This document shows, piece after piece, positions 1 to 5,533 of a stretch of 64,000 nucleotides of DNA. Position numbers and translations under genes: made by a program. Position 1 is the first letter of the stretch. Each line of letters starts with the position of its first letter. Under the pieces are notes generated by a model that was not told the origin of the DNA, did no database searches, and saw only the letters and a list, made by a program, of their open reading frames with translations. The DNA is taken from assembly GCA_016840085.1 (NCBI GenBank), contig JAEOTA010000018.1, forward strand, positions 96,001 through 160,000, written 5' to 3'. This DNA comes from Promethearchaeota archaeon. GTDB taxonomy: Archaea; Asgardarchaeota; Lokiarchaeia; Sigyniarchaeales; SOKP01.

Positions 1-260
1 ATAAAAGCTCCATATTGTAACGCAACTGACTTTTTTGGAATTTTAAAATCATCATTTAAATAAAATTTATTACCAGCTTCTTCTAATTGAGTAATTACTT
101 TTGCTAATGGAGATAAAAATTGGTTGATCATTGATATTAACTGGGGATAACATGGATAATCAACGCCTATTTGAATTAAATCTTCAAAGATCCTTATCAT
201 ATTTTCTTCATTGTTAGTTAGAGGCCAACTTCCAACAACAGTAGTGAATGGATTATCCAT
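1..260 (-). CDS. Partial (runs off window start) cobalamin-independent methionine synthase catalytic-domain/URO-D-fold protein
   Basis: Own translation from ATG at 260: MDNPFTTVVGSWPLTNNEENMIRIFEDLIQIGVDYPCYPQL...; the TTVVGSWP ... GVDYPxYPQL pattern matches the N-terminus of MetE C-terminal-domain (core MetE) proteins. Not in the ORF track. Confidence 0.65.
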   Translation of the reverse strand, partial: MDNPFTTVVGSWPLTNNEENMIRIFEDLIQIGVDYPCYPQLISMINQFLSPLAKVITQLEEAGNKFYLNDDFKIPKKSVALQYGAF

Positions 261-327: not shown

Positions 328-2334
328 CTAGGTATAAAATCTTTTATTATTAAAATTTCTGTTATTTTGTTTAATAGATTCTAATTCTTCCAAATTATGT
401 TGTAAAGTTTGAATCTTCTTATCGATAAGATAAATTTCCTTGTTTAGATTTCTAAAAGTCCTAAAATAATCACTTTCTGATATCAAACCTTGATCAAACT
501 TCTTTTCAAGTTTTTTTAATGTAGTTTTAAGACCATATCGCTCTTTTTCTAATTCGTTCATCTTTTTTTGATTTTCTTTATCTAACTTATAAAGCTTTCT
601 TTTATTTCGAAAAGATTTACCTGTTAAAACATTATCACGGCTGAACAAAGAGGATAAATGATTTCTATTAAATTCTTGGAATGTAGATTCGTCATTTGAG
701 ATAATTGGGTCTTCATTAAAACCGTGTGTTTCGTCCATCTTTCTCATTATATTATGTCGATTATTAATATTATTAAATTGGGGATTATAACGATTATTAG
801 GTTGAGGATTATAATTCTGAAATCTGGTTGGATCGTAAAGATTTTGCATAAAGAATTTGCTTTGATATTGGTTTTGTGGTGAGTATTGATTTAAATGATT
901 TCTATAATTGTGTAAAAGCGCAGGAGATTGAAATACTTCTGGAAAACTGTTTATATTTTCGGGAATATATTGATTGTTTGGATATGAAATCATAGGATTA
1001 TTTGGAATTGGTTGCCTTAAATTTTGGTTATATTGTGAAGAGAATTGAGGATACATCTGAGAAGTAATATTTTGGATTTGGTTGGGTTGAAAATTATGAG
1101 AAAGAACTTTATTATAATTTTGAGGATTCCCATATCCTTTATTATATTGACATTTTAAACTGAAAAATGAATTAATACTTTCTTCTATGAAATCTATTAA
1201 AATGTTTAAATCAATATCGATTTCCCACAGTTCCTCTGCAGATTTTTTATCAAATATAGTAGTTTCATCAAAAGTTCTTGCCAAAAGAATATATTCAATT
1301 ACTCTTTTAATTGCTTTTGGAGGGAGTGTAAATTCATATTTACCATATTCAAACTCAATATACAATTTTTTGAATAGTTTTCCTTTTTCCTTAATCCGAA
1401 TTAAATCTTTAACTGGGGCTTTAAAGCTTAATTCTACTTTTTTTTTAAGTAAACCAAATTCATGAATAAATGATAAATCAAAATTAGTAATAAATAAGAT
1501 ACCCTTATCTTTCTTATATCTTTCTTCATTATTTAAACCATTAGCTAATTTAGCATGAATAGCATAAACAGGCTTCTCTTTCTCTGCTAAGTTTAGATGT
1601 TTTTTAAAATTAGTAAAATAATACCCTATTTTGTCAATAAATTTTAGATTTTTTTCAAAAGATTCTATGGTTTCATTAAAAGTATTAACATTATTTAATA
1701 CAAAATCATTGATAGAATTATAGCTACGAATAAGATTATCAAAAATCCCTTCGATAATTGTAATGTTCGTGTTAGGTTGGGCATATATATCAAAATAATA
1801 TTCTTTATAAAGAATTAATTGATGAAAATGAGCATTTATTTTATCATATAAGGTATTTTGCACATATATAAAGAGTTTAAAGAGAGCTAATAGATCTGAT
1901 TCCATTTTTGGAAAATGGTAATATTTAATTGGAGGATCTCTTGCTGTTTTTATTTTTTGTTGATATTTATATAAAGTATTAAGAACATCTCTTAAAGGAT
2001 TAACAAATAACCTTGAATTCTTGATTAATTCTAAAAAGGATTTTTCTAATTCTTCTTTTTTCTCATAAATATTAATAATTTTATGTGAGCTACATTTTGG
2101 GCATGATTTTAAAAGTTGGTGATCTTTTACAATATTTTCATTTCCGCAATCTTTACATCTTATTGTTTTTTCAGAATCAGTAACTTCAATGTTTTTGGAA
2201 TTACAATCTTGACAGATATAACTATCAACTTTTTTCTCATGTAAACAGTCAGAACAACAATTAGCACCACATTCTTCACAATAGTAAGCTAACTTTACAT
2301 ATCGTTGACAAAAACGACAAATTTGCTCTGACAT
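328..2334 (-). CDS. Multidomain hypothetical protein: six CxxC pairs, coiled coil, GRAM/PH-like domain, N/Q/P/Y-rich region, C-terminal coiled coil with steadiness-box/SHOCT-like motif
   Basis: CRFC, CEEC, CSDC, CQDC, CKDC, CPKC; KGILFITNFDLSFIHE (GRAM-like GxLxxT motif); low-complexity NQ-rich stretch; KFDQGLISESDYFRTFRNLNKEIYLI. Confidence 0.7.
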   Translation of the reverse strand: MSEQICRFCQRYVKLAYYCEECGANCCSDCLHEKKVDSYICQDCNSKNIEVTDSEKTIRCKDCGNENIVKDHQLLKSCPKCSSHKIINIYEKKEELEKSFLELIKNSRLFVNPLRDVLNTLYKYQQKIKTARDPPIKYYHFPKMESDLLALFKLFIYVQNTLYDKINAHFHQLILYKEYYFDIYAQPNTNITIIEGIFDNLIRSYNSINDFVLNNVNTFNETIESFEKNLKFIDKIGYYFTNFKKHLNLAEKEKPVYAIHAKLANGLNNEERYKKDKGILFITNFDLSFIHEFGLLKKKVELSFKAPVKDLIRIKEKGKLFKKLYIEFEYGKYEFTLPPKAIKRVIEYILLARTFDETTIFDKKSAEELWEIDIDLNILIDFIEESINSFFSLKCQYNKGYGNPQNYNKVLSHNFQPNQIQNITSQMYPQFSSQYNQNLRQPIPNNPMISYPNNQYIPENINSFPEVFQSPALLHNYRNHLNQYSPQNQYQSKFFMQNLYDPTRFQNYNPQPNNRYNPQFNNINNRHNIMRKMDETHGFNEDPIISNDESTFQEFNRNHLSSLFSRDNVLTGKSFRNKRKLYKLDKENQKKMNELEKERYGLKTTLKKLEKKFDQGLISESDYFRTFRNLNKEIYLIDKKIQTLQHNLEELESIKQNNRNFNNKRFYT

Positions 2335-2487: not shown

Positions 2488-2781
2488 TTATTTTATTATT
2501 TTTACTTTTTTTCCTAACGCTTGCCCAGGAACTCCTGCTTTTTTAAAATGAGCTCTTACAGCACCATTATTTCCATGCGCACGAGTTATTACACCTTTTA
2601 ATTCCTTACCTGAAGGAGTATCCCAAACAACGGTCCTTCCAATAAGTCTGTTTGCCTCTTTTCTTGTCCTTATATTTGGAAAAACTAAAATACAGTGTTT
2701 CTGATGAACTGTGTGACGACCCCTTTTATAATTTGATATAACTCCTTCCATACCCAAAATATCTAATTTACTTAATGACAT
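2488..2781 (-). CDS. rpl35ae: 50S ribosomal protein L35Ae
   Basis: GVISNYKRG...LIGRTVVW...GVITRAHGNNGAVRAHFKK..PGQALG, typical of eL33/L35Ae. Confidence 0.95.
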   Translation of the reverse strand: MSLSKLDILGMEGVISNYKRGRHTVHQKHCILVFPNIRTRKEANRLIGRTVVWDTPSGKELKGVITRAHGNNGAVRAHFKKAGVPGQALGKKVKIIK

Positions 2782-2954: not shown

Positions 2955-4358
2955 ATGAGAGTAGCTTTTAGTAAAATTAAACTTACACCAAAAAATTATA
3001 TTGGAAAATCCTTGGCAGGTTATACAAGAAAAGACCCTTGTTTGGGGAAATTAGATGATATCTATGCGTATGCTGTTTTAATTGATGGAACTTCAGAAGC
3101 TACTAAAAAAAGTATTTTATTATTGATTTCAATAGATACCTTAAAAATTCCGTTATCAATTTCAAAATATATTAAGAAAAAAATCAGTTCTAATCATCCC
3201 AAATTAGATTCTGAACATATTTTAATACATGCCACTCATACACATGCTTCTTTCGATCTTACTGGTGAGTTCTATAAACCAGGAGGTACTTTTAATGTGA
3301 TGAAGGGCATAATGTTTGGGGCGAATAGAAATGATAGTTATATAGTATGGTTTGCTAGAAAGATTATTAAAATGGTCAAGGAATTATTTAATAAACTAAA
3401 ACCATGTATCATTGCTTCTAAGAAAGAAAAATTTAATCCAGATATTGTAATCAATCGAAGACATCCTACAAGTAATACGAAACCACATTTAGGTGTTATT
3501 ACTTTTAAAAGCTTAGATACAAAAGAATTGGTTGGAATTATTGTTAATTATGCTTGTCATCCTACAACTCTATCCTATAAAAATAATAAACTATCAGCTG
3601 ATTATCCTGGACGAATAATTCATAAAATAGAAGAATTAACTAATGGTAGAATAAACACTATATATTTTAATGGTCCTTCGGGAGATTTAAATCCTATAAC
3701 TACTTGTGGAATAGATTATCCAAAATTAGAAGTTGACAAATCTCTTATATACGATCAACTTGGAACTTATGAAGACACAATTAGAATTGGAAATTCTATA
3801 GCAGAAGCGGCATTAAAATTGGCTAATAGTATTTCAGAGGAGGATTATTTTGATAGTATTGAAATTCAGCCCAATACAAAATATATCTGGATTCCTATGA
3901 AAGATTATAAATATATTTCGAAATTATGGTTAAAAAACAAGCTTATTTTTGCACTCAAGAAATATTTCTTATTAATGGTTGCTAGAGTTAATATACTCAA
4001 TTCAAATTTCCCAATCTTTATTTTAAATAAGAAAATTTTAGGGATAAAATGTAAGACTTTAATTCAAAATATTAAAATTAAAATCAGTAAAAAGTCTAAA
4101 TCAAAGGAGTTTAGCATTTTGACCATTCCAGGTGAATTATTTGAAGATATTGGCAAATTTTTATATAGATATTCAATAACAGGAATAATGAATACATATA
4201 TATTTCAAAATACTCAAGATTGGATTGCTTATTTATTTCCACTAAAAGAATACATTAATGAAGGAGGTTATGAGCCAATACCGAGTTTCAGTCCTATCTG
4301 TGGATATTATATAAAAAATGAGATGAGGAATCTTATAAATGATATAAAAAAAATATAG
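2955..4358 (+). CDS. Neutral/alkaline ceramidase-like Zn amidohydrolase
   Basis: LAGY, ATHTHAS, NYACHPT, SADYPG, GDLNP, PGELF and GGYE motifs of the neutral ceramidase family. Confidence 0.8.
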   Translation: MRVAFSKIKLTPKNYIGKSLAGYTRKDPCLGKLDDIYAYAVLIDGTSEATKKSILLLISIDTLKIPLSISKYIKKKISSNHPKLDSEHILIHATHTHASFDLTGEFYKPGGTFNVMKGIMFGANRNDSYIVWFARKIIKMVKELFNKLKPCIIASKKEKFNPDIVINRRHPTSNTKPHLGVITFKSLDTKELVGIIVNYACHPTTLSYKNNKLSADYPGRIIHKIEELTNGRINTIYFNGPSGDLNPITTCGIDYPKLEVDKSLIYDQLGTYEDTIRIGNSIAEAALKLANSISEEDYFDSIEIQPNTKYIWIPMKDYKYISKLWLKNKLIFALKKYFLLMVARVNILNSNFPIFILNKKILGIKCKTLIQNIKIKISKKSKSKEFSILTIPGELFEDIGKFLYRYSITGIMNTYIFQNTQDWIAYLFPLKEYINEGGYEPIPSFSPICGYYIKNEMRNLINDIKKI

Positions 4359-4366
4359 TTTTATTT

Positions 4367-5533
4367 CTACTCACTAAGATTTTCAGCTTTTATCCAAGCT
4401 TCTTGATTAATCTTATTTAATTCAGTGATAATATTTTCTTTAGTTAAATAGGGCTTCTCTTGTATTATTTTCTCTACTTTAGATAATAAATCAGATTCTA
4501 AACTTCTTAGTTTAGAAATGTTTATTCGTGATTTTGACATAGTATGTTTACACCAATACCATTCTAGATCAACGTTTTTATATGGCCCAGGTTCATAATA
4601 TTTTTGTCCTTCTACAGGAAAAATATAAGGTTTATAGATGCTAAGACACGGTAACGTGGTCCCAGTGAACCAATGTATTGATTGTTTTCCTTTCCTTAGA
4701 TGTGAAACTTGAGAACCTGTGGATTCAAAACCTCCATGCATACAAATTCCTGCATCATGTTCTCTAAGAAATTTCATCATCATTTCATGAGTTATATTCC
4801 CTTTATTTTCGTTCAAAAGTAGTGCTGATTTTCCACCTCGAGATAATGGAGATGGTTTGTCAGAGATATAAGATCCTGAAAAGGATACTGCGAAATCAAA
4901 ATCATTATCATCTTTACAATAACCTTTTTCTATAGCATGCTGGATAATCCCATCGCTGCGAATATCTCCTTTACCTCTAATTGAAATGCCATTTGATATT
5001 GATCTTACATCCTTTACTTTTTCAGCGACCCACCACACGTCAGCAGTTTCTAATACAAACGCTTCATTAGGATCGGCAATTAAAAATGAATTATGATACA
5101 TCCAATTCGGATCGTTATAAGCACATCCTCCACCTTGTCCATATTTTTCTAATAAAGCAACAATGATAGTTAATGCTTCTTTTGCCGTTTTCCCTCTTTC
5201 AAGGCCTAGTCTTAATACATCCATGCCTAATAATCCAATAGATCTTAACGATTCATGAGTATATACGGCTTCATTCCCAATCGCAACACCACATTCATTA
5301 ACACCCATTTCTGCCCCCCACATCCACCATGGTTGGCTCAATAACACAGCATAAGTTTCAGAAACTTGAGGAATTGAGATATAAGTACATTTTAATTCTT
5401 CTCCCTTTGAATGCATAGCTCCTGGATTATATGTTATTAATTGGACCTCATTATAAGGTCTATCAGAATTTTTTCCAAATATAATGTTTCTATCTTTTGT
5501 AGAATTACCAAGTGCTACTAATGTGTCACACAT
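4367..5533 (-). CDS. Secernin/dipeptidase, peptidase family C69 (Ntn hydrolase)
   Basis: N-terminal MCDT nucleophile; FGKNSDRP; WMWGAEMGVNECGVAIGNEAV; GLLGMDVLRLGLER. Confidence 0.9.
   Translation of the reverse strand: MCDTLVALGNSTKDRNIIFGKNSDRPYNEVQLITYNPGAMHSKGEELKCTYISIPQVSETYAVLLSQPWWMWGAEMGVNECGVAIGNEAVYTHESLRSIGLLGMDVLRLGLERGKTAKEALTIIVALLEKYGQGGGCAYNDPNWMYHNSFLIADPNEAFVLETADVWWVAEKVKDVRSISNGISIRGKGDIRSDGIIQHAIEKGYCKDDNDFDFAVSFSGSYISDKPSPLSRGGKSALLLNENKGNITHEMMMKFLREHDAGICMHGGFESTGSQVSHLRKGKQSIHWFTGTTLPCLSIYKPYIFPVEGQKYYEPGPYKNVDLEWYWCKHTMSKSRINISKLRSLESDLLSKVEKIIQEKPYLTKENIITELNKINQEAWIKAENLSE

Follow-up and report, generated by a model that had tools for sequence, protein, structure and literature searches.

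A zinc-finger, PH-domain and steadiness-box protein of a Promethearchaeota archaeon as an ortholog of the Asgard Znr_CC_PH_SB family and probable membrane adaptor with an ESCRT-I-like tail

Introduction

What might be the role of a single archaeal chain that seems to join zinc fingers, long helices, a PH-like domain, a low-complexity linker and a Vps23-like tail, and is such a combination new? This question is raised by a gene placed on the minus strand, at positions 328..2334, of a 64,000-nucleotide stretch of contig JAEOTA010000018.1 from a Promethearchaeota archaeon (assembly GCA_016840085.1). The whole stretch, hereafter the window, corresponds to contig positions 96,001 to 160,000 (G000:C4:96001-160000 in the coordinates used here). 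A previous reading made from the sequence alone had proposed a membrane adaptor of the endosomal sorting complexes that are required for transport (ESCRT), with a domain arrangement not recognized from any described protein. By sequence comparison, the gene is an ordinary ortholog of the Asgard family Znr_CC_PH_SB (asCOG cog.011556), whose exemplar is Lokiarch_16740, and we infer that its product probably acts as a membrane adaptor carrying an ESCRT-I-like assembly tail. Within the archaeal ancestry of eukaryotic membrane remodelling, no part is understood less well than the ESCRT-I of Asgard archaea, for which this family could plausibly supply the missing membrane and cargo adaptor.

The gene and its predicted product

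The open reading frame (ORF) at 328..2334 extends from an ATG to a stop codon, encodes 668 amino acids in local DNA with a G+C content of about 25%, and constitutes a genuine gene. All the features that the sequence-only reading had listed, namely six CxxC pairs, helices, a middle domain, a linker and a tail, were verified in its product, and the peptides quoted in it were located by script at nt 1596-1564 (LNLAEKEKPVY), 1506-1459 (KGILFITNFDLSFIHE), 1365-1330 (LYIEFEYGKYEF) and 501-424 (KFDQGL...IYLI). Single-sequence searches with the 668-aa protein returned only sub-threshold Pfam matches, and nothing useful was obtained from NCBIfam or from the PDB sequences, so that the domain assignments described below rest on family-wide scans, profiles and a structural model. 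In the full-length AlphaFold2 model, built with a 40-sequence alignment, the predicted local distance difference test (pLDDT) score exceeds 90 in two segments, residues 10-400 and 580-650, and stays under 50 in residues 403-572; helical stretches are located at 89-247, 355-400 and 573-665. This layout is not a product of chance, because it is shared by more than 260 full-length homologs.

A member of a described Asgard family

The BLASTP alignment with KKK44603.1 (Lokiarch_16740) spans both proteins in full, over 677 columns, with 61% of the positions identical and 74% positive. KKK44603.1 has 650 aa, that is, 1953 nt with the stop codon, which matches the listed cog.011556 member As_004-p_01543 (1953 nt). 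The relative P0081, also of 650 aa and 61% identical to the window protein, bears the UniRef name 'SB domain-containing protein', and its 90% cluster includes KKK44603.1, the hypothetical protein Lokiarch_16740 from Candidatus Lokiarchaeum sp. GC14_75. The window protein and Lokiarch_16740 are alike in length class (668 versus 650 aa), in domain order and in the flanking genes for L35Ae, MetE and ESCRT-III (PMC10936438, PMC5840170); the former has a longer linker, richer in N and Q, and its locus has a ceramidase-like gene inserted between those for L35Ae and the C69 peptidase, which are differences at the ortholog level only.

This family has a published history. Table 1 of a 2018 review gives Lokiarch_16740 as the homolog of Vps23/TSG101 in Asgard archaea and lists Lokiarch_16760 under ESCRT-III (PMC5840170). 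Makarova et al. (2024, mBio) presented Znr_CC_PH_SB, or cog.011556, as a likely ESCRT-I component in which the PH domain is expected to mediate membrane association (PMC10936438), and Lu et al. also treated cog.011556 as a 'Steadiness/Vps23 box' family (bioRxiv 10.1101/2023.07.25.550441). In Hatano et al. (2022), the legend of Supplementary Fig. 8 names RING, coiled-coil and PH as domains of the Lokiarchaeal proteins of ESCRT-I and states that a canonical UEV-Vps23 was not identified in GC14_75. These authors also reported, from yeast two-hybrid assays, that a 'Lokiarchaeota steadiness box protein', which may be Lokiarch_16740, interacts with Vps28 and Vps22. The architecture was thus already published between 2022 and 2024, with the steadiness-box (SB) tail flagged earlier, and the claim of novelty is not supported. 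The domain calls of the sequence-only reading, in turn, were sustained by the predicted fold and by the profiles, meaning that a published multi-domain architecture had been correctly recovered from raw sequence. The remaining interest lies in the biochemistry of the whole family, that is, in the PH and zinc-module ligands and the assembly with Vps28, rather than in this particular locus.

Full-length relatives, more than 260 in number and 50-90% identical, were found in a collection of 5.8 billion proteins, and those carrying a source name were mostly of Asgard origin (Promethearchaeota, Lokiarchaeia, and Thor-, Hod- or Heimdallarchaeota metagenome-assembled genomes). An exhaustive phmmer search of 1.84 billion cluster representatives retrieved only 127 at E <= 0.001, many of them 20-30% identical and with an unchanged layout. 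Several orthologs carry the NCBI name 'B-box zinc finger protein'. Within the phylum, a 40-member profile matched 209 of the 301 sampled genomes at E <= 1e-10, including 73 of the 90 of high quality. Matches were found in nearly all genomes of the window genome's own GTDB family, f1 (64/68), and of f9 (73/76), in few of f7 (3/28), and in none of f24 (0/21) or f5 (0/4). These counts agree with the published distribution in 'several Asgard lineages'.

The steadiness-box tail

The C-terminal region (340..618, minus strand) was modelled with pLDDT 90-96 as a stalk helix at residues 573-614, a GLISE loop at 615-619 and a return helix at 620-665, which together form a helical hairpin with a Vps23-type SB at about 588-651. 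The pattern G-x-I-x4-[FY]-x4-R-x-L matches residues 616-630, and the G-x-I-S loop is almost invariant among homologs. Pfam Vps23_core matched residues 588-637 of the window protein (E 0.032, 14.6 bits) and 18 of the 40 family members examined, with a best E of 3e-4. When the family profile was compared with 177,635 PDB sequences, it recovered the yeast Vps23 core constructs 2p22_A (E 0.0017), 2f66_A (0.0024) and 2caz_A (0.006), followed by TSG101 (0.069) and VPS37B (0.78). Moreover, the same three constructs were the sole PDB matches below E 0.1 for a profile of the tail only (19 sequences), the alignment with Vps23 extended over 58 residues across the hairpin loop with no gap, and hhalign of the tail against the Vps23 segment yielded P = 2e-4 and a probability of 47%. 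The SB assignment, as judged from these profiles, is consistent and specific, yet below curated thresholds. The tail had been described as SB-like with a generic SHOCT domain as the alternative, and the specific matches to the Vps23 core favour the former. The SHOCT reading was rejected, since no Pfam SHOCT match was obtained with the window protein (E <= 10) or with ten tail-containing relatives (E <= 0.1) in searches whose HMMER filters discard very weak matches.

The resemblance to eukaryotic Vps23/TSG101 covers the order of the C-terminal half, in which a flexible low-complexity linker is followed by a stalk helix and a C-terminal SB hairpin, and the tail of the window protein aligns gaplessly to the SB of yeast Vps23. 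In contrast, the head of the window protein consists of zinc fingers, a helical bundle and a PH domain, no Pfam match to UEV or UQ_con was obtained on the protein, and the P[ST]xP motif was not found in its linker by motif search.

The same tail was also observed on another architecture. The relative P0193 (351 aa) joins an N-terminal CpXC domain (Pfam 5e-20) to a C-terminus that shares 43% identity with residues 551-668 of the window protein; these sequences suggest that the module of coiled coil and SB is shuffled among Asgard proteins.

The PH-GRAM domain and its helical support

The middle domain, which the sequence-only reading had taken as GRAM/PH-like, was modelled as a PH-GRAM-type fold at residues 250-353 (1276..1587, minus strand), composed of seven strands (255-336) and a C-terminal capping helix (339-353) with pLDDT of about 90-97. 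Superposition by VIA-align, using residues ~238-360, gave Z 13.0 with 4tyz (rmsd 2.3 Å, 104 of 109 residues aligned), Z 12.9 with the MTMR2 PH-GRAM domain (rmsd 2.7-2.8 Å, 107 aligned) and Z 12.3 with the PH-like domain of Lam6 (rmsd 2.9 Å, 107 aligned). Foldseek retrieved the N-terminal PH domain of Vps36 GLUE (2cay_B, E 3.3e-4, TM 0.49 on the target), and Pfam matched bPH_3 in 18 of the 40 members (best E 4.8e-7), GRAM in nine (best E 4.7e-5) and Vps36 GLUE (Vps36_ESCRT-II) in four (best E 0.014). The PH/GRAM assignment, predicted as it is from models and profiles, is solid.

The domain is preceded by a bundle of long helices at residues 89-247 (1594..2070, minus strand; pLDDT > 90), the 'CC' of the family name, with helices at 89-110, 112-132, 144-175 and 188-242, the last of which continues into the PH domain. 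Further helices follow it at residues 355-400 (1135..1272, minus strand; 355-358, 363-371 and 377-400, pLDDT ~95). Like Vps36 GLUE, the window protein joins a PH-fold domain with zinc fingers; its PH domain, however, is continuous rather than split by NZF fingers, its zinc module lies about 160 residues upstream, the winged-helix ESCRT-II core domains of Vps36 are absent, and the structures nearest to its PH domain are PH-GRAM domains (MTMR2 and Lam6) instead of GLUE. K298, K322 and the KKK run at 297-299 are conserved basic residues, and they hint at lipid (phosphoinositide) binding in a way that is suggestive only.

A DH-PH (RhoGEF-like) tandem was also considered but is not favoured. Such tandems were the top full-length Foldseek matches (E ~1e-5) but superposed with rmsd of 18-27 Å, and longer VIA alignments (175-228 aa) reached rmsd of 5-15 Å with Z no higher than that of the PH domain alone. 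This likeness was treated as a generic resemblance between structures in which a PH domain comes after long helices.

The N-terminal zinc module

A count by script gave six CxxC pairs and no more, with C6, C19, C27, C41, C60 and C78 as their first cysteines, and 13 of the 14 cysteines of the protein fall within residues 6-81. Among 40-50 homologs, these pairs are either invariant or conserved at 90% or more, and they correspond to the three-zinc-site module of the published family. The first four (residues 4-46, 2197..2325, minus strand) would provide two zinc sites with the spacing C-x2-C-x9-C-x2-C-x4-C-x2-C-x10-C-x2-C, compatible with a B-box1-type or RING-like cross-brace; from sequence, this region fits either a B-box/RING-like cross-brace or two sequential zinc ribbons. 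Pairs 5 and 6 form a classical zinc ribbon at residues 57-88 (C60xxC63 ... C78PxC81; 2071..2166, minus strand), whose three-stranded sheet was assigned by DSSP at 57-60, 68-77 and 86-88, and weak Pfam zinc-ribbon matches cover residues 39-86 (E ~0.005).

Published labels differ for this module, read as three zinc ribbons by Makarova et al. (PMC10936438) and as RING by Hatano et al. (2022) in a figure legend. The family-wide scans matched Pfam zf-B_box in nine of the 40 members (best E 2.4e-5), and the family profile recovered from the PDB sequences the TRIM28 B-box1 (E 0.016) as well as RING2. A structure model of the N-terminal region only (pLDDT 86) had the zinc ribbon of Rpb2 as its best Foldseek match (~40 aa, rmsd 1.3-1.9 Å, E ~0.1), and its VIA-wide list comprised mostly RING, B-box, ZZ and U-box domains with Z of 3-4.2, within the range that the tool rates as inconclusive; no PDB match of this model exceeded Z 4.2 or had an E under 0.1.

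The disordered linker

Residues 403-572 (619..1128, minus strand) form a predicted disordered linker of about 170 aa with pLDDT < 50, and the composition of residues 401-545 reaches 21% N, 13% Q, 11% P and 8% Y. Homologs keep both the linker and its N/Q/P/Y bias (median length 172 aa among the 118 homologs in which it could be delimited), and its sequence is variable except for two islands. One of them, NHLSSLF, at residues 558-564 (643..663, minus strand), just before the stalk, was traced by alignment and by the regular expression NH[LIFM][ST]xxF, which 116 of 118 close orthologs and five of 63 distant representatives match. The other, FFMQNLYDPTRFQNY, at residues 494-508 (811..855, minus strand), follows the strict expression FFxQN...RFQNY in 51 of the 118 close orthologs and is also visible in P0081, P0141, P0163 and P0185. 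Both islands look like short linear binding motifs.

Linkage to ESCRT-III and candidate partners

Downstream of the gene lies a MetE-like gene, coding for a cobalamin-independent methionine synthase-like protein (3..260, minus strand, running off the left end of the window; Pfam Meth_synt_2 9.3e-9), and beyond it, outside the window, an ESCRT-III (Snf7) gene at G000:C4:94535-95182 on the plus strand (Pfam 3.3e-10). Upstream, the neighbour is the gene for ribosomal protein L35Ae (2488..2781, minus strand; Pfam 7.6e-16), as in Lokiarchaeum GC14_75, followed by a ceramidase-like gene of 467 aa (2955-4358, plus strand; neutral/alkaline ceramidase Pfam 1.4e-7, sub-threshold at 31 bits for a cut-off of 32.1) and by a C69 peptidase gene (4367-5533; Pfam 4.9e-5). 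The published order for cog.011556 in GC14_75 is PepD C69 peptidase, L35Ae, Znr_CC_PH_SB, MetE and Vps20-type ESCRT-III (PMC10936438, supplementary table, from which the flanks of P0081 were also taken). The window locus thus reproduces this order with one insertion, the ceramidase-like gene, which does not occupy that place in GC14_75.

An ESCRT-III gene was found within about 8 kb of a family member in the six genomes checked, which belong to four GTDB families; in the five other than the window genome, from three other families, the distance was about 0.5-8 kb, and the two genes were directly adjacent in three f9 genomes. These genomes are related, so that the count is no statistical test; each one harbors only one to four Snf7 copies in 2.6-4.4 Mb, and for this reason the linkage is far beyond chance expectation. 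The association of Znr_CC_PH_SB with ESCRT functions is consequently backed by conserved ESCRT-III linkage.

In a six-frame translation of the whole genome, the tail of the window protein was the sole Vps23_core match at E <= 1. The genome also encodes EAP30/Vps22 (C2:96916-97575) and a Vps28 homolog of 217 aa (G000:C32:33667-34320, locus L003 1453-2106, plus strand; PF03997, 37.6 bits, over the cut-off), the latter being the obvious candidate to pair with the SB tail. Just upstream of the Vps28 gene, a 311-aa protein with a weak zinc-ribbon match (Pfam DZR) is encoded. A genome search for UEV (PF05743) gave no match and was uninformative, given that its control had no match anywhere either, and a search for UQ_con located E2-like genes on contig C78 only, none of them linked to an SB. 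On that same contig, a 460-aa protein (G000:C78:36952-38334, locus L021 337-1719, plus strand) has an IFT52 GIFT domain (Pfam 1.3e-9) and a C-terminus that weakly matches the SB-tail profile (E 0.005), and it may be another SB-bearing multidomain protein.

Alternative explanations

The conserved linkage also motivates the main rival, a CdvA-like membrane-bound platform that would recruit the neighbouring ESCRT-III of Vps20/32/60 type directly, for division or vesicle budding, with no need for a Vps23-Vps28 ESCRT-I. It is in fact ESCRT-III, and not Vps28 or Vps22, that is the conserved neighbour, adjacent in the three f9 genomes and 2-8 kb away in others, and the SB hairpin has been reported to be similar to that of CdvA (Makarova et al., PMC10936438; Lu et al., bioRxiv 10.1101/2023.07.25.550441). 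With crenarchaeal CdvA the window protein would share the logic of a membrane recruiter, the SB-related hairpin and a gene near ESCRT-III; however, it lacks both the PRC barrel and a recognizable ESCRT-III-binding C-terminal peptide, and its family's Pfam CdvA matches are marginal (three of 40 members, best E 0.098), weaker than those to Vps23_core. Moreover, this genome has a Vps28 that requires a partner with an SB, and a second Vps23_core-like sequence was not detected in it. Direct recruitment of this kind is considered unlikely. A generic scaffold of zinc fingers and coiled coils unrelated to ESCRT, whose tail would resemble Vps23 through its coiled-coil composition, is extremely unlikely: all Vps23_core scores are under the Pfam threshold and the coiled-coil families APG6_N and KIF21A also match the tail weakly, but the tail profile singled out the three Vps23 core constructs with no gap across the hairpin loop, the G-x-I-S loop is nearly invariant, and the linkage to ESCRT-III is kept in four families.

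The zinc module leads to another reading, in which a RING/B-box cross-brace would bind E2 or ubiquitin, and the protein, as a ubiquitin-system adaptor or E3-like factor, would mainly link ubiquitylation to the membrane instead of building ESCRT-I. The 'B-box zinc finger protein' names, the zf-B_box matches, TRIM28 B-box and RING2 among the PDB sequence matches, the predominance of RING, B-box, ZZ and U-box domains in the VIA-wide list and the RING finger of the Hatano et al. legend all point in this direction. Every structural match, in contrast, remained at Z <= 4.2, the best Foldseek match was a plain zinc ribbon, and three zinc ribbons were read by Makarova et al. Even an E3-like N-terminus would be an addition to the ESCRT-I or the CdvA-like model and would not exclude a role in ESCRT-I, and a primarily ubiquitin-directed function is regarded as very unlikely.

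A probable role as an ESCRT-I-like membrane adaptor has to be weighed against several observations. Archaeal lipids are unlike eukaryotic phosphoinositides, and the predicted PH domain could have a protein as its ligand. As folds go, a helical hairpin is simple; the Vps23_core scores are below the gathering threshold of 26.8 bits everywhere (14.6 for the protein, 18.9 in six-frame translation and 21.3 for the best related fragment), the E-values against Vps23 structures are merely about 1e-3 to 1e-2, and the hhalign probability is 47%. Furthermore, the gene is placed outside the main Vps4/Vps25/Vps22 cluster, beside one ESCRT-III paralog instead.

Proposed mechanism

The adaptor favoured here would have a Vps23-like assembly tail, with zinc fingers and a PH domain in place of the UEV head, domain types that eukaryotes use in Vps36 and Vps27. 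The PH-GRAM domain, mounted on a rigid helical bundle, would place the protein at the membrane or at a membrane-bound partner, and the three-zinc module would bind cargo, ubiquitin or another protein. The flexible N/Q/P/Y-rich tether of about 170 residues would join this head to the stalk helix and the SB hairpin, and the hairpin would pack against its counterparts in Vps28 and in other SB proteins, forming an ESCRT-I-like headpiece that couples the membrane site to ESCRT-II and ESCRT-III.

A bolder version, to which only a small probability is assigned, is that Znr_CC_PH_SB may be the sole Vps23-type stalk subunit of ESCRT-I in this organism, since a canonical UEV-Vps23 went undetected in the lineage and the genome has no Vps23_core-like sequence other than this tail. 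Such a subunit might merge ESCRT-0-like membrane and cargo capture, by a RING/B-box-like zinc module and the PH-GRAM domain, with ESCRT-I assembly, and its prion-like N/Q tether, together with the conserved NHLSxLF island, might recruit the adjacent ESCRT-III in a multivalent or condensate-type manner.

Other genes near the ESCRT-III paralog

Additional ORFs were observed on the minus strand upstream of the ESCRT-III gene, outside the window. Less than 18 kb from it are a 177-aa ORF at G000:C4:78064-78597 (L002 64-597), which resembles by eye a small Ras-superfamily GTPase, and a 331-aa ORF at G000:C4:87326-88321 (L002 9326-10321) with an acidic Pro/Glu-rich tail and no Pfam match. Finally, G000:C4:89267-90337 (L002 11267-12337) codes for a homolog of CPBP/Rce1-like membrane proteases whose N-terminus carries double zinc ribbons (Pfam matches to Rce1-like, 3.1e-9, and to Zn_ribbon).

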